From: Parcubacteria group bacterium GW2011_GWA1_56_13 | Lineage (GTDB): Bacteria; Patescibacteriota; Minisyncoccia; Phycocordibacterales; Phycocordibacteraceae | DNA: 64,000 bases | Reading direction: 5' to 3' | NCBI GenBank assembly: GCA_001004905.1 | Contig: LCRY01000002.1 | Location: 199,251-263,250, forward strand | Shown: positions 3,973 to 45,962 of the stretch, piece after piece | How positions within the stretch are numbered: position 1 is the first letter of the stretch | Layout of the letters: every line of letters begins with the position of its first letter | The notes under the pieces: model-generated | Databases searched by the model: none | Seen by the model: the letters and a program-made list of their open reading frames with translations, nothing else | Told to the model about the DNA's origin: nothing | Made by a program: the position numbers and the translations under genes

Positions 3973-4251
3973 AGGATGCTCTCCTTTGAGAATAATATTG
4001 TTGGTGGAGTTTCGGCCGGATGAACATGAACACAGCCGACGCTACCGTACCACATATCCGCTTTTAATGCAAATAAAAATTGCGTACTCGGCGTTCCTGT
4101 TGTAGGATGCCGAAGGCGCCTGGCTGTTCCCGCATTTCCTCCCTTTATCCCCTAGGAACATGCCAGCGCTTCTTCACGGCCCCCGAGCCCACAAGGCAGA
4201 GGGGTCTTTCTTTTTGCGCGATGACATGTGCCGGGAAAGCACGTGCGCGGT

Positions 4252-5124
4252 TCAATCGAAAATGGAGATGAGGTACGCATCAATGGTGCGCTGGTCCATG
4301 GTATAAAAATAGGAATTTGTGGCGTGGAGATTTGTCGCCAGTTTTACGCCGACGAAGCGCCAATGCCAGGGCTCGAACATGTAATAACCGTTGTTTTTCG
4401 GGTAGGAGAGAACGAATCCGTAGCGATGGGCATTCGCCGTGAGCCACGTGTATGCCGGCGTGCGCTCGAACCCGATAAGCTGGCCGCCGGTGCCGGTGGT
4501 AATGAAATCGACCGCCGTGCCGAGCTGGTGTTCGGAGTATCCTTGTTCCGCGGAAAATTGGTTCGCCGTGCCGGCGCCGTATGTCATCACGTATCGCTCC
4601 TTGAGCGCCTCTTGGGTATTGAAGGAACGGTACGCCGAGTCAACGTAGAGCAACACTTCGTCCGCGCTGGCCTGACCCAACATTTTTTCCAGGTGGGGAA
4701 GTACTTCGGGCAGGATTTGCAGCGGCTTGTTTTCGGAATATTTGTATTTGGAGGGGATTTCCGCGAGCCGCGCGGGCGCGTAGGCATCGCTCAAGAAAAA
4801 GACCTTTGAATATTTCGCCAGCAATTCGGGATCGATCGCACTAAGCTTTTGTAGCTCTGTTACCGTTCCATTTATCGCGCCGACTTGTGATTCGACCATC
4901 TTCCTTTCGCGGGTGAATGCATCACTGAGCGAGATAGTCGAATCCTGTAGCAGTGCCGTCGTCGAGGCGAGCCCTGTGGAAAGTTCCGTGACTTGTTCTG
5001 AAAGGGAGGCAATACGGGCATATCCGTACCACGAGACGGCGCCCAAAACGACGGCCATGCAAAGAAATCCCGCCGCAAGAGCATCCTGACTCGAAGATAT
5101 TCGCCGTAAAAATCGCGATAGCAT
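4252..5124 (-). CDS. D-alanyl-D-alanine carboxypeptidase, VanY/M15B family, membrane-anchored
   Basis: SEHQLGTAVDF and EPWHWR motifs; N-terminal TM; start at ATG 5124. Confidence 0.8.
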   Translation of the reverse strand: MLSRFLRRISSSQDALAAGFLCMAVVLGAVSWYGYARIASLSEQVTELSTGLASTTALLQDSTISLSDAFTRERKMVESQVGAINGTVTELQKLSAIDPELLAKYSKVFFLSDAYAPARLAEIPSKYKYSENKPLQILPEVLPHLEKMLGQASADEVLLYVDSAYRSFNTQEALKERYVMTYGAGTANQFSAEQGYSEHQLGTAVDFITTGTGGQLIGFERTPAYTWLTANAHRYGFVLSYPKNNGYYMFEPWHWRFVGVKLATNLHATNSYFYTMDQRTIDAYLISIFD

Positions 5125-37342: not shown

Positions 37343-40300
37343 ATGAAATCAAACCTCTACAAAAAAGATCTGATCACGACACGATTTGCCGGTAAACTTT
37401 CCGGGTACACTTCGAGTTATTTGAGGCGCCTTGCACGGTCCGGCGAAATAGAGGGTGTCCAGGTCGGCCGGGTGTGGATGATCAAGCGCAGTTCGCTCGT
37501 CCGCTTTCTTGATGTACAAGCAAAGCGCAAGGAAGAGCTATCACACGTTCGCTCTCAAGTTCGCGCCGCTGAATATCACTCGCACCGTCCGCCGTTGCGC
37601 AGGCCTGCAAAAACGATCACGAAACCACTCTCGGCATCGTACTTCGGCACCAAAAAAGAGGCGATTATTTTTGCGTCAATTCTGACGTTCATCGTCATCT
37701 CTTTCGGAACTGTCGCGCTGCAAGGGGCCAGTATCGTTCCGGCTGTCATCACTGCAGGGAAGCAAACGGCAGCCGTTGTTGGCATGCAGTCCGTCTCAGG
37801 CATCGGCGAAAAACTCGCTCTTGCTACGTACGAAACCGTTCAAAGTTTTTTTGATTCTGCACAACGCGCGCTCGCGTCGCTTTTCAAGCCGTCGTCCACC
37901 CTGGTCGTGCTCCCAAGTCCGCCGCCCACCGTCATCGCCTCGAACCCGCCTCCTGTGCATTCGGCTTTCACAACGATTGTCGCCACGACGACCCGGCCTT
38001 CATATACCACCATCGTCCAGGGCATATCTTCCGCCTTCCTCGACCAGTCGCTCTCCACGCTGCGCGCCGACATCATCGCCACCGTCGTTGGCATGGTGAA
38101 TCCGGTGGCCGCACAGGTGAATCCCATCTACCATTACTCCGAAGCAGACTCCTTTGACGGCGGTGCCGTGGGCAACGCCGTCACCGCCCCTTCTTTCTCG
38201 GCAAGCGATGCTGAGGGCATGAACTCCCTCGCCCTTCTTACCGCTGGCACCACCACTCTCACCAATCTCGCGGTCACGAACACGAGCACGAGCACGTTCG
38301 CGGGTCCTCTTTCCGTTGCTGGCGTCCTCACCGTCACCGGAACCACCACCGCTGCCGGATTCATATCGACAGACCTCGGCTCCGCCGAACGCCCCGCCTT
38401 CGCCTTCCTCGCCGACCTCGCCACCGGCCTGTTCTCTCCCACCGCCTCCACCCTCGCCCTGTCAAGCGGCGGCACCGAGCGCCTGCGCATCGACGCCGAC
38501 GGCAACGTGGGCATCGGCACCACCTCCCCCGACGCCCTCCTCTCGCTCCAGCAAGTCACCAACGGCACGCCCTTCTTGAGTGCGTACCGCGTGACCGACA
38601 CGGTCCCCTCCGGCGACTTCATCTCATACAAGCAGAACGACGGCACCACGCTCTTCCGCGTGGACAACTCGGGCAACCTCCTTGCCGGCGGCATCATCAA
38701 CTCCGGCAGCCAGACCATTACGTCCGTTTCGACGCCGCAATTCAGAGTCCAGTATGACCCCACCAACGAGATTACCCTCTCGGTGAACTCCCTGGGCACC
38801 ACCACCATCGGACTAAACGGCACCGCCCCCGGCCTCACCTTCACCCCCCAGTCGAATCTCGTGAACCAGTTCAACTTCACCGACAAGGACAGCAGTTCCG
38901 TGCTCTCCATCGATACCGTGAACAAGCGGGTGGGGGTGGGGACGACGAGTCCATATGCGAAGTTGAGCGTGGTGGGGCCGATAATTGCTGAATACTTTCA
39001 TGCAACCTCGTCTGTTGCTACCTCCACCTTTTCAGGAAAGGTCGGCGTCGGAACCGCGAATCCCGCAAGGAAGGTGCATATAGTAGATGGCACCTCATAT
39101 GGCTTTGGTTTCGGCGAACAACTGCGCGTTGATGGTTCGAATACGGTTGGAGCCAACATCGGTTTCTATACGTCGCTTGGAGGTGATAGGAGAAATTGGT
39201 TGATCGGCACCGACGTGGCTACTGTGGGGGATTTCGGTTTCGTAAGATCGGCAAGCCCCGGGACGGAACCACTGTCTTCCTTAGTGTCTTTGGTCATCAA
39301 CAACGCCGGCAACGTCGGCATCGGGACGACGAGCCCGTGGGCGCAACTTAGCGTGAACCCGAACGGCATCACCGGCCCCGCCTTCGCCATCGGCTCCTCG
39401 ACCAAGACCGATTTCGTGGTGACGAATGGGGGGAAGGTGGGGGTGGGGACGGCGGCGCCCGCCTATCCGCTCCATATCACAGGCACATCAGACACAGGCC
39501 ATCTCGCCGTAGAAGCATCGGGCGGCATCGCCCAAATCCAGCTTCTTGGCAACGCCGGCTCGGCGGACGACATTAATTTCGGCATTTCGGGCGGCACGTT
39601 CGCCAATGCCCCGGGTAAAATCCGCTATAACAACGGCTCTTCAGGCCTCATGCAGTTCTATACCAATAGCGAGGCACGCCTCAACATTACCAACACCGGC
39701 AACGTCGGCATTGGGACGACGACACCTCAATCAAAATTATCGGTTGTGGCGAGTGAAGCGACTAATGCGGCCATATCACTTTCTGCAGACGATGGGGACG
39801 ACATCTCGGACACGTGGTTTTTAAACTCCATTGCTAGTGGCAATACCCTCACCTTTACTAACAGCGGTAATACAGCATTTTCATTGAGTGGTTTTGGCGC
39901 CTTATCATTACCCCAAACAACTGCACAAGTGACTCTGTATAGCTCTTCTGACTCAACGGGGCTGGATTTGGATGTTAGAGCTTCATCTTTACCGACAGCA
40001 TCATACATATACACAGCCGATGGGAGTGGGGGTTCCTATCCGTTTACTACATGGGGTAATTTACTTCTTGGCCCGGCAAGCGGAGCGGATATTGTTCTCG
40101 GCAGGGACAGCGAGGTGGTAATCAAAGACGGCGGCAACGTCGGCATTGGGACGACGAGCCCCGGACACAAACTCTCCGTCGCCGGCTCCGCCTATTTCGA
40201 TGGTGGCACCATTACGGCCTCCGGTTTCACCGCGACTTCGAGCATTTCCGCTCCATACTTCACCACGACCGATGCAACCGCTACTTCCACTTTCGCAGGA

Positions 40301-43300
40301 TTCATAGACGTGAACGGCACCGGTTCGAACGCCACGTCGACCTTCGCCTCGAACCTTTGGGTGAAAGGGACGCTCCGCACGGGTACTGGTTCCATATACT
40401 TGAATGACACTGGCCTCACCGCGTCAGACGGAAATATCGCCCTCACTCGAAACGGCGTCTCACATATAAACGGCGGCAACGTCGGCATAGGCACCACGAC
40501 GCCGGTCGGGAAGCTCACCGTAGCGTCGAGCGGCGGCGTCAATACCGGGCTTACTTTGGACATAAGCTCCGCTTCAAGCTACGTTCCCATCGATTTCAGG
40601 TCCCAATCGACCCTGGGGGCACAGATCGCGATGACGGGCTCCTCTTTTTCGAGCGGCTCTTCCGGCGCGAACGAGCTGTTCGTTGCGAACGAACTGACTT
40701 CAGGAACGTTGCACCTTGCCTCGATCGGGTCGAGCGGAATAGTCAAATTCACTACCGGCGGAAATACCACTGCGAACGAAAGGATGCGCATCACGAGCGA
40801 TGGCAACGTCGGCATCGGCACGACGAATCCGACGGCAGGACACTTAGTGGTTGGTGACGGAACGACTTCAAGCAATCAAGCAATAGTAATGAACTCTCCC
40901 GCTGCGAATTGGGCGGGGATAGTCACACAGAAAGCTGGGACGGAGAAGTGGTTTATAGGGATGGGAGACACCGCAACTTACGGTGATAAGTTGTTATTAA
41001 GACGCACAGCTTCGTCCAACGACATGGTAATTGATACCTCCGGCAACGTCGGCATCGGGACGGCGAGTCCAGGGAGCAAGCTTCATGCATATGATAGTTC
41101 CACCGCTTCCAATCGAGTTGCCCAGTTTACGAATGCGGTAGACGCTAATGGAGAATTCAGCTACATCGGGATTGGCAGGGAAAGCGGTGAGCAAGCGTAT
41201 GTCGGCCATACTTATAATTCGACGGACGGAAACAGATATGCGTGGCTCGGCGTATCAGGCGACGGAATCACAGAGAACGGCACAGGTCTTATAGTCAAAA
41301 AAGGCGGCAACGTCGGCATCGGGACGGCGACGCCCAATGGAAAATTGGCAATCACCCCAAGTTCAGTTGGGACTCGAAAAATTGTGTTGTTTGAAGGTGC
41401 GAATAATGATTATCAGTTTTATGGATTCGGCGTTGAAGGCAGCACATTAGTATATACCACATATACAACAAGCGATGACCACGTATTCTTTGCAGGAACG
41501 TCTGCAACCTCACGGAACGAGTTAATGAGAATAAAAGGCACCGGCAACGTCGGCATCGGGACGGCCAATCCTGGATACAAACTGGATGTCAGTGGCTCTT
41601 TGAATGCTACTTCTCTGTACGAAAATGGGATCCAAGTGAGTTACCCCATACCTTTAGCGCCGGGTGCTAATAATTGTAGTGCTCAATGGGTGAATCTTGG
41701 TACTTTGACAATCGGTCAGGGAGGGCAGAGTGCCTTCATTAAGATGGTATCGAATGCGGGATACAACGCGAGTATAAGTCAAAACTTCGAAGCTTACATC
41801 AGATTCAAAACTAGTAACGGGGGTAGCGTTGACAGTAATGGATTCGCCGGTGATTCTTCGTTTTACACGACGGGAAGATCGCTGTTAAATGGTTCCAGTG
41901 CGGTGAAATGGGTGGCGAATGCGAGTGGTGTTAGTGCTACTTCGTACACTCTCTACGTTAACTTCGCCTCGTGTTTCGGAGTTGGCAGTTTTTATACTGT
42001 AGAAACTTCGGGTGGGTCTTGGGTAGATGTTAGTGCTGGGTCACAATCAGATCCGGGGAGCGGAAGCGCCACGGTTCTCATAGCGACGAATGAATTCAAT
42101 GTCGGCGGAAGTAGTTTGGTTGTCAATTCTTCTAGCAACGTCGGCATCGGTACGGCGGACCCTGGGGCAAAACTTGAAGTATTCGATTCTACGCCCACGA
42201 GCGCCCAGGCAGTAAATTCGAAAGCGAAGATGCTCGTCAATACGAATGGAAATGCGTTTCTAGAATTCCGATCGACTGCGGATAATAACAGCTATCAGGG
42301 ACTTCTCTTTGCCGACAACAATCAAGGAGGTTATGTGGCATTCAACAACGCCGGTGGCGGCGATGATTATTTGCATCTCGGCGGGTACACGGGCGTCAAG
42401 CTTGAGTACGGCTCACAGGATTCAACTACCGACATAGCTCTCAAAACGCTCGGAATGACGCTGAATAGTACGGGAGCGACTTTCGCCGGCGCCGTCGCTG
42501 TGACTGGAGCGCTTTCCCACAATGGCAGTACCGTCTGGGACGCCGGCAATGACGGTGCCAGCAGTGGTCTCGACGCGGACTTACTCGACGGCATAAGCTC
42601 CGCAACCTTTGCACGCCTTGATAGCGCTGCTAGTTTTTCAAGCACGCTCTATGCCGCGGGAAAGATAACGAGCGGCGTCAATGGTGCCGCCTACTTCTGT
42701 GGCGGTGACGATGCCTGTCTCTATGACGTGAACGTTGCCAATGTCGTCGGTATTGTCGGCGCTACAACCGATCGCGGCTATGTACAGTTTGGCAACGGTT
42801 CAAGCGCTATTTTAGGAGCAGTGAACGGAGGAGCTCTCACTTATAATGGCAACACCGTTTGGCATTCAGGAAATGACGGTGCCAGTTCCGGCCTAGACGC
42901 GGACTTACTCGACGGCGTGAGCAGCGGTTCGTTCGCGCGCGTCGATGCCGCCACTAATTTCACCACTGCGCCGACCATTAGCGGAAATACGGTATGGCAC
43001 GCCGGCAACCTCACCAACCTTAACCAGCTCACCAACGGCCCCGGCTACATCACCGACGGCAATAGCGGCTGGGATAACGTTTATGGATACATCACCGACG
43101 GCAATAGCGGCTGGGATAACGCTTATGGCTACATCACCGACGGCAATAGCGGCTGGGATAACGCTTATGGCTACATCACCGGTTCGAACCCAACATTTTC
43201 TAGCCTCAGTATGTTTAGTGGATATAGCGTCTGCATGACCGCACAAACAGGAGGGAATCTTGGTTGGTGCGATCCATCAGACGTGCGTTTGAAGAAGGAG

Positions 43301-44599
43301 ATAGTTCCCCTTCCGACGGCTGCAACAATCGAGAAGCTTCGGGGACTTAACCCGGTTTCATTCAAATGGATCGATGAGGCCGTTAGCACCAGCACCCAGA
43401 TCGGCTTGATTGCCCAAGAAACGATGGAATTTTTCCCTGAATTGATATTATCCGGCAACGGTCCTTATTATGGAGTTAATTACTCAAGACTGGTTTCACC
43501 GCTTATCGTAGGATTCCAGGTGCTTGATAGTCGGACTATCGACATTTCTTCCGACGGTAACGGCAACGTCGGCATCGCTTCGACTTCGCCTTCGGCTACG
43601 CTTAGTGTAAACGGCACCGGCTATTTCACAGACAACCTTACCGTAACCAGTGATGTGCGCGCCACGGGCTTCGTGAACACCTCGACGAGGACGCTCAAGA
43701 CGAACGTCAGTTATCTCTCCGCAAGCTCCTCGCAGCGGATGCTCGCCGAACTCCTCGACCTTAAGGCCGCCACCTACCGCTACATAAGCGACTCGCCTGT
43801 TCTAGGCGGAGCCGAAGGTCTCCGCCTCGGCCTCATCGCCGAAGACGTCGCGGCCATTGCCCCCGAGCTCCTCTCTCTGGACGGGAAGGGAATAGACCTC
43901 TACAAACTCGCCACCTTTACGCTCGCCGGCGTACAGGCACTCGCGATACGCATCGAAGGGCAGGAGACACGCCTCACCTCGCTTGAAGCGCGCGTTGCCG
44001 CTCTCGAGAGTGGGGCGGTGAGCACGGCGAGCGGGACGATGTTGACCGCGTCCTCTACGCAACAATGGATAACGAGCTGGTTCGCGAGCGCACAGAACGG
44101 GATAGGCGACCTGCTCGCAAAGACATTCCGTGCAAGCGAGAAGATATGTGTTGACGACCAATGTCTGACCAAGGATGACGTACATACCTTGCTCCAGATG
44201 GTGAGAGCCCAGGCCACGTCAACGGCCCCAACCAGCACGACTTCGGGTGGGGAAATATCCATAATCACGACCGCATCCTCAACACCGACGGCCGACGCAG
44301 CGACGGCCAGTTCGACCGCGCTTATTACCGCAGACACGGCGGATACGACCGCCACGAGCACGCCAGCGGATACGGCAACAACTACTACACCGATAGAGAT
44401 AACCGACACCCCGCCGACGACGGATACCGCGACAGACAGTACCGTGGTAATCACTGACGTTTTGCCAACGACAGATACAGCGGTCTCCACTGATCAAACA
44501 ACGGCCACATTGGAAACTTCCAGCGAAGTTCCAACGGAGCAGGCCACCGATAGCTCAACCGCGCCTGCAACCGACACCACCACAACAACCTCTCCTTAA
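37343..44599 (+). CDS. giant surface protein (2418 aa): N-terminal excisionase-type HTH, one TM helix, tail-fibre-like GNVGIGTTSP repeats, two S74-type intramolecular chaperone domains, Thr/Ala/Pro-rich C-terminal tail
   Basis: Single uninterrupted ORF with the domain features read from the translation. Confidence 0.85.
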   Translation: MKSNLYKKDLITTRFAGKLSGYTSSYLRRLARSGEIEGVQVGRVWMIKRSSLVRFLDVQAKRKEELSHVRSQVRAAEYHSHRPPLRRPAKTITKPLSASYFGTKKEAIIFASILTFIVISFGTVALQGASIVPAVITAGKQTAAVVGMQSVSGIGEKLALATYETVQSFFDSAQRALASLFKPSSTLVVLPSPPPTVIASNPPPVHSAFTTIVATTTRPSYTTIVQGISSAFLDQSLSTLRADIIATVVGMVNPVAAQVNPIYHYSEADSFDGGAVGNAVTAPSFSASDAEGMNSLALLTAGTTTLTNLAVTNTSTSTFAGPLSVAGVLTVTGTTTAAGFISTDLGSAERPAFAFLADLATGLFSPTASTLALSSGGTERLRIDADGNVGIGTTSPDALLSLQQVTNGTPFLSAYRVTDTVPSGDFISYKQNDGTTLFRVDNSGNLLAGGIINSGSQTITSVSTPQFRVQYDPTNEITLSVNSLGTTTIGLNGTAPGLTFTPQSNLVNQFNFTDKDSSSVLSIDTVNKRVGVGTTSPYAKLSVVGPIIAEYFHATSSVATSTFSGKVGVGTANPARKVHIVDGTSYGFGFGEQLRVDGSNTVGANIGFYTSLGGDRRNWLIGTDVATVGDFGFVRSASPGTEPLSSLVSLVINNAGNVGIGTTSPWAQLSVNPNGITGPAFAIGSSTKTDFVVTNGGKVGVGTAAPAYPLHITGTSDTGHLAVEASGGIAQIQLLGNAGSADDINFGISGGTFANAPGKIRYNNGSSGLMQFYTNSEARLNITNTGNVGIGTTTPQSKLSVVASEATNAAISLSADDGDDISDTWFLNSIASGNTLTFTNSGNTAFSLSGFGALSLPQTTAQVTLYSSSDSTGLDLDVRASSLPTASYIYTADGSGGSYPFTTWGNLLLGPASGADIVLGRDSEVVIKDGGNVGIGTTSPGHKLSVAGSAYFDGGTITASGFTATSSISAPYFTTTDATATSTFAGFIDVNGTGSNATSTFASNLWVKGTLRTGTGSIYLNDTGLTASDGNIALTRNGVSHINGGNVGIGTTTPVGKLTVASSGGVNTGLTLDISSASSYVPIDFRSQSTLGAQIAMTGSSFSSGSSGANELFVANELTSGTLHLASIGSSGIVKFTTGGNTTANERMRITSDGNVGIGTTNPTAGHLVVGDGTTSSNQAIVMNSPAANWAGIVTQKAGTEKWFIGMGDTATYGDKLLLRRTASSNDMVIDTSGNVGIGTASPGSKLHAYDSSTASNRVAQFTNAVDANGEFSYIGIGRESGEQAYVGHTYNSTDGNRYAWLGVSGDGITENGTGLIVKKGGNVGIGTATPNGKLAITPSSVGTRKIVLFEGANNDYQFYGFGVEGSTLVYTTYTTSDDHVFFAGTSATSRNELMRIKGTGNVGIGTANPGYKLDVSGSLNATSLYENGIQVSYPIPLAPGANNCSAQWVNLGTLTIGQGGQSAFIKMVSNAGYNASISQNFEAYIRFKTSNGGSVDSNGFAGDSSFYTTGRSLLNGSSAVKWVANASGVSATSYTLYVNFASCFGVGSFYTVETSGGSWVDVSAGSQSDPGSGSATVLIATNEFNVGGSSLVVNSSSNVGIGTADPGAKLEVFDSTPTSAQAVNSKAKMLVNTNGNAFLEFRSTADNNSYQGLLFADNNQGGYVAFNNAGGGDDYLHLGGYTGVKLEYGSQDSTTDIALKTLGMTLNSTGATFAGAVAVTGALSHNGSTVWDAGNDGASSGLDADLLDGISSATFARLDSAASFSSTLYAAGKITSGVNGAAYFCGGDDACLYDVNVANVVGIVGATTDRGYVQFGNGSSAILGAVNGGALTYNGNTVWHSGNDGASSGLDADLLDGVSSGSFARVDAATNFTTAPTISGNTVWHAGNLTNLNQLTNGPGYITDGNSGWDNVYGYITDGNSGWDNAYGYITDGNSGWDNAYGYITGSNPTFSSLSMFSGYSVCMTAQTGGNLGWCDPSDVRLKKEIVPLPTAATIEKLRGLNPVSFKWIDEAVSTSTQIGLIAQETMEFFPELILSGNGPYYGVNYSRLVSPLIVGFQVLDSRTIDISSDGNGNVGIASTSPSATLSVNGTGYFTDNLTVTSDVRATGFVNTSTRTLKTNVSYLSASSSQRMLAELLDLKAATYRYISDSPVLGGAEGLRLGLIAEDVAAIAPELLSLDGKGIDLYKLATFTLAGVQALAIRIEGQETRLTSLEARVAALESGAVSTASGTMLTASSTQQWITSWFASAQNGIGDLLAKTFRASEKICVDDQCLTKDDVHTLLQMVRAQATSTAPTSTTSGGEISIITTASSTPTADAATASSTALITADTADTTATSTPADTATTTTPIEITDTPPTTDTATDSTVVITDVLPTTDTAVSTDQTTATLETSSEVPTEQATDSSTAPATDTTTTTSP
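43043..43198 (+). repeat. three and a half tandem copies of a 48-bp unit encoding GYITDGNSGWDNAY inside the giant gene
   Basis: Near-identical tandem units read directly. Confidence 0.85.
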
Positions 44600-44621
44600 A
44601 CCCGCCTCATTAGCGCAGCCC

Positions 44622-44644
44622 ACTTAGCGGTCGAACCCCTAAGT
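44622..44644. repeat. 23-bp palindromic repeat ACTTAGCGGTCGAACCCCTAAGT, copy 1 (upstream of the transposase)
   Basis: Four copies at 44622, 44843, 45122 and 45335. Confidence 0.85.
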
Positions 44645-44666
44645 TGCACGATGATAAGATGTGAGG

Positions 44667-45332
44667 ATGGGAACAAGGAAAAAGTCTTTTGCGAATGGAG
44701 AGTTCTATCATATTTACAACAGAGGAGTTGATAAGAGGGTTATCTTTGTGGATGAAGAGGAGATTCACAGATTCTTCCAAAGTATGGTCGAATTCAATGT
44801 TGTCGATCCCGTAGGAAGTTTGTATCAGAATTCATTCCGCCAACTTAGCGGTCCGACCCCTAAGTCAGAAGACATGCTGGTTGATATCATTGCATATTGT
44901 CTGAATCCAAATCATTTTCACATTATCCTTGAGCAGTTGGTGGAGGGCGGTATCAGCGAATTTATGAAGAGATTGAGTGGCGGCTACACATGCTTTTTTA
45001 ATCATAAAAATGAAAGAAGTGGGTCCTTGTTCCAAGGAAAATTTAAGGCTGTCCATATTGATTCGAACGAATACCTGCTTCATGTAAGTGCGTATGTGAA
45101 TCTGAATGACCGAGTACACGTACTTAGCGGTCGAACCCCTAAGCTGATTGCAAGCAGATCGAGCTGGCAAGAGTATATGGGTAACGGGGTTAGAGGGATT
45201 TGCGAAAAGGAGATTATCTTGGGACAGTTCAAAAATATAGGTGAATACAAAGAATTTGCGCTTGAATCTCTCGAATCAACTAGACAAAGAAAGCAGGAAC
45301 TAAAGGATTTCGACGCATTCCTTCTTGAATAA
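44667..45332 (+). CDS. IS200/IS605-family Y1 (HuH) transposase, REP-associated tyrosine transposase-like
   Basis: YHIYNRG N-terminal motif, HFHIIL HuH motif, and AYVNLN...SRSSWQEY, which resembles the Y-motif region of RAYTs. Confidence 0.7.
   Translation: MGTRKKSFANGEFYHIYNRGVDKRVIFVDEEEIHRFFQSMVEFNVVDPVGSLYQNSFRQLSGPTPKSEDMLVDIIAYCLNPNHFHIILEQLVEGGISEFMKRLSGGYTCFFNHKNERSGSLFQGKFKAVHIDSNEYLLHVSAYVNLNDRVHVLSGRTPKLIASRSSWQEYMGNGVRGICEKEIILGQFKNIGEYKEFALESLESTRQRKQELKDFDAFLLE
44843..44865. repeat. 23-bp palindromic repeat, copy 2 (inside the transposase CDS, in frame, encoding LSGPTPK)
   Basis: Read directly. Confidence 0.85.
45122..45144. repeat. 23-bp palindromic repeat, copy 3 (inside the transposase CDS, in frame, encoding LSGRTPK)
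   Basis: Read directly. Confidence 0.85.
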
Positions 45333-45334
45333 CT

Positions 45335-45357
45335 ACTTAGCGGTCGAACCGCCAAGT
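45335..45357. repeat. 23-bp palindromic repeat, copy 4 (immediately after the transposase stop)
   Basis: Read directly. Confidence 0.85.
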
Positions 45358-45359
45358 GG

Positions 45360-45962
45360 TCAGGCCTCTTTGCGGTTCGTGAGGGCTGCCCGGAGCGTTT
45401 CTGCGTCGGAGTATTCAAGTTCGCTGCCTGTCGCAAGTCCGCGGCCGAGCATGGAAACCTTTATATGATCGCGCCATGGCGCAAGGAGCTCGCGCACGCG
45501 GTCGGTCGTGTGCTCGCCTTCGCTCGTCGCCGACAGCGCGAGCACAACTTCCTTTAATCCTCGCTTCAGATGATTTTCTATCGCTTTCGTCAGCTCCTTT
45601 TCACGAATGGCTCCTTTGCCCGAGAGGGTCAGCACGCCGCCGAGGACGAAGTAGCGGCCTTTGTAGGTGCCGGCGCGCTCTACCGCGGAAAGGTCCTGGT
45701 CTTTTTCAACGATCATCAATTGTGCGTCGTCACGCGCTTTATCGGTGCAGTAGTTACAGATGGCCGCATTCGTTCCGTTAAAGAAACGCAGACATTCCGG
45801 GCATTGCCGGACATCCTTACCCAAGGAGGCGATGAGCTCGGCAAGCGTCGTCCGCTCGCTCGCGGGCGCGGCGAGCAGGTAATAGACGAAGCGCTTTCCC
45901 TGGCGGGGACCGATACCGGGGAAGCGGGCGAGGACTCGCGCGAGTTCTTCAATATGGTCCAT
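45360..45962 (-). CDS. recR: recombination protein RecR
   Basis: HhH, C4 zinc finger (CPECLRF...CNYC) and Toprim domain. Confidence 0.9.
   Translation of the reverse strand: MDHIEELARVLARFPGIGPRQGKRFVYYLLAAPASERTTLAELIASLGKDVRQCPECLRFFNGTNAAICNYCTDKARDDAQLMIVEKDQDLSAVERAGTYKGRYFVLGGVLTLSGKGAIREKELTKAIENHLKRGLKEVVLALSATSEGEHTTDRVRELLAPWRDHIKVSMLGRGLATGSELEYSDAETLRAALTNRKEA

Follow-up and report, generated by a model that had tools for sequence, protein, structure and literature searches.

The unit described here, a gene for an HUH/Y1 transposase accompanied by a short hairpin-forming repeat, lies on a 64,000-nt stretch (the window) of contig LCRY01000002.1 of Parcubacteria group bacterium GW2011_GWA1_56_13. 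The closest described systems are the REPtrons, in which repetitive extragenic palindromes (REPs) accompany the gene of a REP-associated tyrosine transposase (RAYT, or TnpAREP; for Escherichia coli TnpAREP, PDB 4ER8, see PMC3333891, PMC3479197, PMC8266576). The canonical RAYT/TnpAREP hairpin carries a GT[AG]G tetranucleotide at its 5' foot (PMC6006769, PMC8266576). TnpAREP acts on single-stranded REPs: it binds them, and cleavage and recombination take place at a CT or CA dinucleotide next to the hairpin (PMC3333891, PMC8266576). In addition, the mechanisms of REP dissemination were called poorly understood in a TnpAREP study of 2021 (PMC8266576).

Several other systems are relevant. In the RAYT survey of Quentin et al. 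2018 (PMC6006769), REPs lying in frame within tnpAREP genes are a hallmark of RAYT subclass 2.4 (Bertels group 4). Subclass 2.1, or TIRYT-like, is reported there without REPs and is characterized in Table 1 by the motifs NH[YF]H, FQ or W[EQ], Y[IV]HLNP and an SS tail motif in a protein of ~238 aa; the same table lists the Y motif Y[IV]ENQ and a minimal core of ~150 aa for the IS200/IS605 transposases. REPs were also described inside uvrA, DNA ligase and tRNA-synthetase genes by Di Nocera et al. 2013 (PMC3733652), who bring up the Rickettsia palindromic elements (RPE) as well.

Our analysis makes it fairly likely that the locus is a REPtron-like unit of a bacterium of the candidate phyla radiation (CPR; Patescibacteria/Parcubacteria), composed of an apparently single-copy RAYT-like HUH/Y1 gene and cognate 23-nt REP-like hairpins. 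In the best reading of the data, loops of the enzyme's own gene have been invaded by these hairpins, which are kept uniform.

Four hairpins in and around the transposase gene

The window was searched with ACTTAGCGGTCSAACCSCYAAGT allowing up to three mismatches, and 100 shuffled sequences served as a control for chance. Exactly four sites were found, all on the plus strand and at the positions given in a preliminary description of this DNA; none is expected by chance. There is no further copy of the 23-mer, nor a half-copy, elsewhere in the window. The features of the locus are as follows.

44622–44644, no strand assigned: hairpin copy 1, ACTTAGCGGTCGAACCCCTAAGT; non-coding, overlaps the presumed promoter of the transposase gene
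44652–44660, plus strand: putative extended -10 box TGaTAAGAT, located 6 nt ahead of the ATG and proposed from the sequence alone
44667–45332, plus strand: RAYT-like HUH/Y1 transposase gene, 221 aa, recognized by Pfam, invariant HUH and Tyr residues, an AlphaFold2 (AF2) model and a PDB fold match
44843–44865, no strand assigned: hairpin copy 2, in frame as LSGPTPK, residues 60–66, in the loop between helix alpha1 and the strand leading toward the HUH motif
44913–44921, plus strand: HUH motif H83-F-H85, invariant in the alignments
45093–45095, plus strand: catalytic Tyr143 within AYVNLN, invariant in the alignments
45122–45144, no strand assigned: hairpin copy 3, in frame as LSGRTPK, residues 153–159, in the loop after the Tyr-bearing helix
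45335–45357, no strand assigned: hairpin copy 4, ACTTAGCGGTCGAACCGCCAAGT; 2 nt past the stop codon, where the transposase gene and recR converge

The consensus of the four copies is ACTTAGCGGTC(G/C)(A/G)ACC(C/G)C(T/C)AAG(T/C). As had been anticipated, every copy folds as single-stranded DNA: on either strand it forms a 10-bp stem with one mismatch and a 3-nt loop, at -3.5 to -8.2 kcal/mol, and the same C.C mismatch is common to three of the copies. An Rfam scan gave no family match; the sole sub-threshold hit, to the eukaryotic small nucleolar RNA SNORD73 at 44861–44931 on the minus strand (28.5 bits against a gathering score of 42), was taken as chance.

The open reading frame (ORF) extends from 44661 or 44667 to 45332. 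Homologues start at the ATG at 44667, so the gene encodes 221 residues and not 222 as proposed before. Copies 1 and 4 indeed bracket it, the former with its 3' end 22 nt ahead of the ATG and the latter inside the 27-nt gap that separates the transposase gene from recR. Copies 2 and 3, at offsets 176 and 455 from the ATG, share the frame A-CTT-...-AAG-T (hyphens mark codon boundaries) and are translated as first reported. The placement of copy 3 in the Y motif does not hold: the catalytic Y143 belongs to AYVNLN, and the loop encoded by copy 3 lies ten residues further on. Copies 1 and 2 are spaced by 221 nt and copies 3 and 4 by 213 nt in the window; across the homologous loci described below these spacings are ~195–223 and 210–213 nt, and this near-constancy may simply reflect constraints on protein length.

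The encoded protein resembles a RAYT

The identity of the product as a Y1 transposase was upheld by Pfam PF01797 (Y1_Tnp; residues 67–145, 32.3 bits against a cutoff of 23, E 1.2e-7). No alignment, whether of 18, 65 or 93 sequences, shows any variation at H83, H85 or Y143. An AF2 model built from 65 close homologues was unusable (pLDDT 52.7); the 93-sequence alignment, which includes two distant subfamilies, gave a model with pLDDT 83.5 and pTM 0.82. In this model Y143 sits in helix 134–145, and the 221-aa protein ends in a C-terminal helical tail. The top Foldseek match in the PDB is 4ER8_A, the E. coli RAYT bound to a REP hairpin (E 1.4e-6, TM (target) 0.62), followed by 2VJV, 2A6M and 2XMA; the TnpA proteins of IS608 and ISDra2 are also significant matches. 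A sequence-based PDB search with an 18-sequence profile found nothing at E <= 1, and PHROGs gave no match. The only internal stretches of low confidence in the model are residues 51–70 and 151–160, two flexible surface loops that copies 2 and 3 encode, with pLDDT below 50 at residues 156–158 in the copy 3 loop.

The sequence motifs are NHFH, LFQG, YVNLND and SSW/PWSS, with YIHLNP in sister subfamilies. The family comprises 6795 clusters at E <= 0.001; among the matches listed, every source name that gives a taxon belongs to a CPR/Patescibacteria lineage. The GC content of the gene is 0.41 against ~0.57 in the window flanks, a difference of 16 points.

The four-site layout is conserved as DNA pairing

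For comparison we assembled 80 metagenomic loci with relatives 52–80% identical to the window protein and added the window, two genome loci and a paralogue, which yielded 82 genes. The loci were scanned for structures with a 10-bp stem and a 3-nt loop, and hairpins of the locus's own type were counted at four sites:

upstream site, 25–58 nt before the ATG: hairpin in 74/82 loci
internal site 1, near +176: hairpin in 57/82 loci, in the same frame in 53 of the 57
internal site 2, near +455: hairpin in 53/82 loci, in the same frame in all 53
downstream site, at or just past the stop codon: hairpin in 70/82 loci

At least three of the four sites are filled in 66 of the 82 loci. The outer stem ACTT(G/A)G/C(C/T)AAGT is conserved across loci. 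The inner four base pairs occur in 21 types that are always complementary (CGGT/ACCG, GGGT/ACCC, AAGC/GCTT, GTGT/ACAC, CAAC/GTTG and others). Among 63 distinct non-coding upstream copies, 97.9% of cells are paired, a percentage inflated by preselection of copies with at least 8 of 10 pairs. In the same 63 copies, double changes are seen in 7 of the 10 stem pairs (116 cells), and the covariation score was reached by none of 500 shuffles. The fixed position of these copies and their identity within a locus are independent of the selection.

The encoded peptides vary with the DNA (LGGETPK, LGSEASK, LGNRVAK, LRRPTSK and others), and of their residues only Leu and Lys are constant, held by the outer stem. 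The conserved entity is thus the DNA hairpin and not a peptide motif, given the compensatory changes in the stem, the match of the internal to the non-coding copies and the freely varying residues. For the same reasons we rejected a conserved peptide motif combined with chance flanking similarity, the scenario that the preliminary description had named as its refutation. On its face that scenario is half borne out, since the window has no additional copies and homologues keep the segments, but what the homologues conserve is the hairpin. Several lineages that retain the catalytic motifs lack one or both internal copies, and decayed remnants of hairpins are seen, for instance at internal site 1 of locus L069 and in L028.

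Concerted evolution and hairpin turnover

Copies within a locus resemble one another far more than copies from different loci: stem identity is 18.0/20 within loci (55% of pairs identical) and 13.4/20 between loci (3% identical). Between relatives ~0.16–0.22 apart in masked protein distance, all copies have switched together (L072 versus L079; L024 versus L026 and L029). In L023 an identical hairpin with 8 of 10 pairs is present three times, and copy 4 of L008 matches copies 1 and 2 exactly as their reverse complement. Imperfections shared in this way cannot arise by independent selection for pairing, so the copies of a locus have been copied from one another or from a common pool; these imperfections point to copying rather than to independent selection. 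The orientation of the loop can be mixed within a locus, as in the series CTC/GAG/CTC/GAG of L025.

The same layout was found with unrelated hairpin sequences in three subfamilies that are ~33–38% identical to the window protein:

L059b: TGACCTAAACTTAGTTTAGGTCA at -28, at +167 and across the stop codon
L110: TGTCAGAAGTTCAACTTTTGACA at -53, at +167 and across the stop codon
L112: TGTCAAACAYCSGRTGTTTGACA at -53, at +170 and across the stop codon

The layout has thus persisted while the hairpin sequence was replaced completely. On the contig of L059 there are two paralogous Y1 genes (337–966 and 4004–4654, only 33% identical), and a separate hairpin family occupies the promoter, in-frame and stop-codon positions of each.

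Next to many outer copies, the 5' or the 3' half of the hairpin alone is repeated once or twice in tandem, for example CACTTGGCGGTTAAACCGCCAAGTG-ACCGCCAAGTG-ACCGCCAC. Such half-hairpins were observed in L046, L034, L041, L084, L060, L038, L049, L051, L069, L045, L077 and L078; cleavage and rejoining could have left them behind, as could replication slippage.

The upstream copy is embedded in a putative promoter

A strict consensus scan of the window for promoters does not call the -10 box at 44652–44660, and the proposed promoter is based on cross-locus comparison. In 61 of 74 loci the hairpin is followed, ahead of the start codon, by a -10-like box, which has the extended form TGn (TGn-TAnnnT) in 53. 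In the commonest arrangement (37 loci), ...CCAAGT-Gn-TAnnnT, the final base of the hairpin doubles as the T of this TG. A perfect TTGACA -35 box is formed by the 3' arm of the hairpin in the TGTCAAA...TTTGACA subfamily.

The -10 box ends 6–9 nt ahead of the start codon in 54 of the 61 loci, which implies a leaderless mRNA; the predicted transcript of the window transposase would also be leaderless or nearly so. A promoter located upstream of a leaderless start in turn places copy 1 outside the gene's own transcript. Mismatches in the hairpins show no strand bias (28 G.T versus 30 A.C). Together with the presence of copies in both orientations, these observations argue for an element that acts at the level of DNA rather than RNA. 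The promoter copy, which overlies the -35 and spacer region, probably lets the enzyme, or extrusion of a cruciform, damp the gene's own transcription. Autoregulation through the promoter copy is plausible, and a self-regulatory role as suggested in the preliminary description is possible at least for this copy.

Dispersed copies reside mostly within other genes

In a scan of one genome per species, with stretches of up to 8 kb, the 22-mer was found in 21 stretches, and all titles with a taxon refer to CPR lineages (Saccharibacteria, Azambacteria, Paceibacterota, Nomurabacteria, Yanofskybacteria and others). A transposase gene is present within the stretch in only 4 of the 21 loci (three gene copies). 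Most of the solo copies lie in frame within Pfam-confirmed genes, namely those for LeuRS, IleRS, UvrA, UvrC, LigA, MurC, TsaD, Dus, TatD and a GT2 glycosyltransferase; another forms the C-terminal tail of an ORF that was read by eye as a candidate dihydroorotate dehydrogenase. These copies are read as LSGxTAK or, in the second open frame, as LAVxPLS, and they occur in either orientation in unrelated genes. The third frame, in which ACT-TAG introduces a stop codon, is never used. No target-site motif or duplication was evident by eye around the solo copies.

UvrA contains a tandem pair of hairpins (48 nt, 16 codons) in a loop that is empty in most homologues and variable in length in close relatives, which supports an insertion without a precise indel boundary. 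Tandem hairpins separated by a 2-nt spacer (48 nt, 16 codons) lie in frame at L002 6919–6966 and at L016 7560–7607, the latter pair in opposite orientations; they are similar to REP dimers (REPIN/BIME-like), but reside within coding sequence. The IleRS ORF of L012 (110–3649) has an in-frame hairpin at residue 225 and a His_Phos_1 domain match at residues 524–686. In L020 (7465–7503) an intergenic solo hairpin is nested within a longer perfect palindrome, TGTGGATA-hairpin-TATCCACA. On a Saccharibacteria contig, a hairpin of a second type, ACTTGGGTGTCCGACACCCAAGT, with its 3' half duplicated (L005 1187–1209), is found 585 nt from a ACTTAGCGG-type hairpin; hence more than one hairpin family can coexist in a genome.

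Genome JAHFMM01 carries a solo pair of the same type as the copies at its own RAYT locus. Around the 82 genes, 10 further same-type hairpins were detected in 306 kb, that is, ~1 per 30 kb.

Genomic context and inheritance of the unit

In every locus the gene has a lower GC content than its flanks. Distant loci have different neighbouring genes, and a given flanking gene family is common to at most 9 of 79 loci. Eight contigs from different samples with identical RecR carry the identical unit in the same place; a search for an empty site via this neighbouring RecR found all 8 contigs occupied, so that no element boundary or target site could be defined. There is one gene copy per contig and no locus with two close copies, and no tnpB was found among the called neighbour genes. 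A low-copy, mostly vertically inherited and occasionally transferred RAYT fits these observations better than an active insertion sequence does.

Directly upstream of the hairpin unit in the window lies a giant gene (37343–44599, plus strand) for a 2418-aa protein packed with GNVGIGTTSP-type repeats and ending in a Thr/Pro-rich tail. According to precomputed Pfam matches it carries a Peptidase_S74 (intramolecular chaperone) domain, and it looks like a giant tail-fibre-like surface protein. In several related loci, too, a giant repeat protein is encoded immediately upstream of the transposase gene.

Proposed mechanism and alternative explanations

By analogy with E. coli TnpAREP acting on REPs, the enzyme would bind the hairpin extruded from single-stranded DNA and would cut in or next to the conserved outer stem, possibly at the CT within ACTT that is present in every copy. 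Rejoining would then both spread hairpins and overwrite or convert existing ones, and such overwriting would explain the uniformity within a locus. The internal copies are probably old in-frame insertions that were tolerated in loops and continually overwritten; the palindromic outer stem A-CTT-GG..CC-AAG-T reads Leu...Lys in either orientation and is free of stops in two of three frames. Of the origins considered in the preliminary description, REP invasion tolerated in frame fits best, in view of the low-confidence model loops, the freely varying residues and the in-frame copies in CPR housekeeping genes. A role of the internal copies as a protected reservoir of hairpins or as a self-limitation device is possible.

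More doubtful, yet conceivable, is that the in-frame hairpins are working cis-elements rewritten by the enzyme, which would cut at the outer stem, swap the inner stem-loop and so overwrite 7-codon cassettes, including those in its own loops and promoter. If true, this would be a natural hairpin-addressed system for short-patch DNA replacement, and the pattern observed here would be a direct in vivo signature of REP copy-and-paste, uncaught in classical RAYT systems.

Several points weigh against the REPtron-like interpretation. Binding, cleavage and hairpin replacement by the enzyme are proposed by analogy. The hairpins do not have the GT[AG]G foot of canonical REPs, and the protein scores 25.1 bits with the NCBIfam RAYT equivalog NF047646, whose cutoff is 80. 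A density of ~1 hairpin per 30 kb is far lower than that of classical REPs, and there is no solo copy in the rest of the 64-kb window, a result with which this density is compatible. Homogenisation is imperfect, since two hairpin types coexist in L074, L066/L071 and L043 and the downstream copy of L079 is likewise of a second type. Besides the preselection that inflates the pairing percentage, covariation that keeps a palindrome is compatible both with an extruded hairpin and with a symmetric duplex site bound by a dimer, and on its own does not distinguish the two. Finally, the copies could have been made uniform by ordinary gene conversion or by template switching, without the enzyme.

This last point can be extended into a passive explanation, in which gene conversion or replication template switching between short repeats accounts for the pattern with no role of the enzyme, and the internal copies are functionless neutral relics. 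The loop inversions and the half-hairpins beside many outer copies do look like products of slippage or template switching; the internal copies are dispensable, as the lineages that lack one or both and keep the catalytic motifs demonstrate; and the decayed remnants in L069 and L028 conform to it. Still, recombination would have no more than 23 bp of identity to work with, the layout survives complete hairpin replacement in ~35% identical subfamilies, and a neutral relic is expected to decay and not to hold perfect 10-bp stems. We regard this explanation as quite unlikely. It is unlikely, too, that the locus is an autonomous insertion sequence of IS200/IS605 type, a 736-bp element whose left and right subterminal ends are the outer hairpins and whose internal copies are passengers or alternative ends. 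In its favour, the unit is sharply bounded by hairpins, lies below its flanks in GC (in the window and in every locus) and has different neighbours from locus to locus, and the IS608 and ISDra2 TnpA proteins are significant fold matches. On the other hand, the top fold match is a RAYT and not an insertion sequence transposase, and the Y motif is YVNLN(D/P) instead of the Y...Q of IS200 (PMC6006769, Table 1). The same near-perfect palindrome stands at both ends in either orientation, without distinct ends bearing guide sequences; the identical unit occupies the same place in eight contigs of different samples with no empty site; tnpB is absent among the called neighbours; each contig has one copy; and solo hairpins without the gene are common.

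Least probable in our view is that the hairpins work as RNA in the transposase mRNA, for instance by slowing translation, serving as RNase sites or stabilising the 3' end, and are maintained through selection on the transcript and not as DNA substrates of the enzyme. In favour of this, transcription covers copies 2, 3 and 4, REPs located downstream of a gene are known to make mRNA more stable (PMC3733652), and the downstream site is filled right past the stop codon in 70 of 82 loci. An RNA role does not account for the equally conserved upstream copy, which lies in the -35/spacer region ahead of a leaderless start and outside the gene's own transcript, nor for the lack of a sense-strand preference among mismatches. 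Both orientations occur, including exact reverse complements, solo copies reside in unrelated genes in either orientation, and no Rfam family is matched.

Relation to known systems and significance

The interpretation as a REPtron-like unit is thus the one we favour, and the similarities to REPtrons are an HUH/Y1 enzyme of ~165–240 aa that is low in copy per genome as far as seen, hairpins of its own type that flank the gene and, in other CPR genomes, recur elsewhere, and a lineage-specific repeat that tracks the gene. Unlike in REPtrons, neither GTAG nor GTGG adjoins any copy, and the conserved foot or outer stem is (C)ACTTGG/CCAAGT(G); hairpin density is far lower, and most of the dispersed copies seen here are intragenic. 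The host belongs to the CPR, which goes unmentioned in the text of the 2018 survey (PMC6006769). As in RAYT subclass 2.4, cognate REPs lie in the frame of the transposase without disrupting it and in a peripheral, variable region of the protein (PMC6006769). The sites differ in that they precede the HUH motif (residues 60–66) and follow the Y motif (153–159), at fixed codon positions in a family of thousands; the motifs FQG and YVNLND and the absence of GTAG set the protein apart from subclass 2.4. In its motifs (NHFH, FQG, YVNLND/YIHLNP, SSW) the window family is similar to subclass 2.1, a comparison made at the motif level only. Concerted evolution of internal and flanking copies and embedding in the promoter receive no mention in the available part of PMC6006769.

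With intragenic REPs and RPE the unit shares in-frame palindromes in housekeeping genes, and the gene classes affected are the same as for the CPR copies (PMC3733652). In-frame loop inserts are found in the transposase gene of the window and, in related genomes, in the Pfam-confirmed genes listed above. RPEs are much longer than the present 23-nt unit (7–8 codons), and elements of the RPE type have no identified transposase, whereas here the cognate enzyme gene is obvious and is itself a host. With IS200/IS605 elements such as IS608 and ISDra2 the locus has in common the enzyme fold, the recognition logic of subterminal single-stranded DNA hairpins and a hairpin-bracketed gene. It differs in its YVNLND motif and a length of 221 aa with a C-terminal helical tail, in having no distinct left and right ends and no 5' guide tetranucleotides, and in having no second copy in the window or any locus and no tnpB among the called neighbours.

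Our search for literature on such an arrangement in CPR/Patescibacteria found nothing relevant, which is not proof of absence. The principle is not new, as in-frame REPs in RAYT genes and intragenic REPs have both been published (PMC6006769, PMC3733652). The arrangement, first singled out as unusual, is less unprecedented than it seemed, since in-frame REPs within tnpAREP genes are known for RAYT subclass 2.4. What sets the present unit apart is the CPR clade, a hairpin without a GT[AG]G foot, the subclass 2.1-like protein subgroup, two fixed sites outside the HUH-Y core, family-wide concerted evolution and the embedding in the promoter. The basic picture of RAYTs and REPs is left unchanged and is extended to a new clade and a new type of hairpin. 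For RAYT and REPIN specialists the co-evolving in-frame copies are a useful natural experiment and no new principle.

The CPR family provides an unusually clean natural record, with thousands of homologues that each have three or four cognate hairpins at alignable positions. Because these positions are fixed, events of turnover, flipped orientation, conversion and loss can be tallied along a tree. The annotation of CPR proteins is affected as well, for example where patches of the form L-G-x-x-x-x-K or L-A-V-x-P-L-S recur among housekeeping enzymes. A simple circuit of autoregulation is suggested by the copy embedded in the promoter, and in these very compact genomes REP-like elements persist largely within genes, as loop inserts of 7–8 residues.

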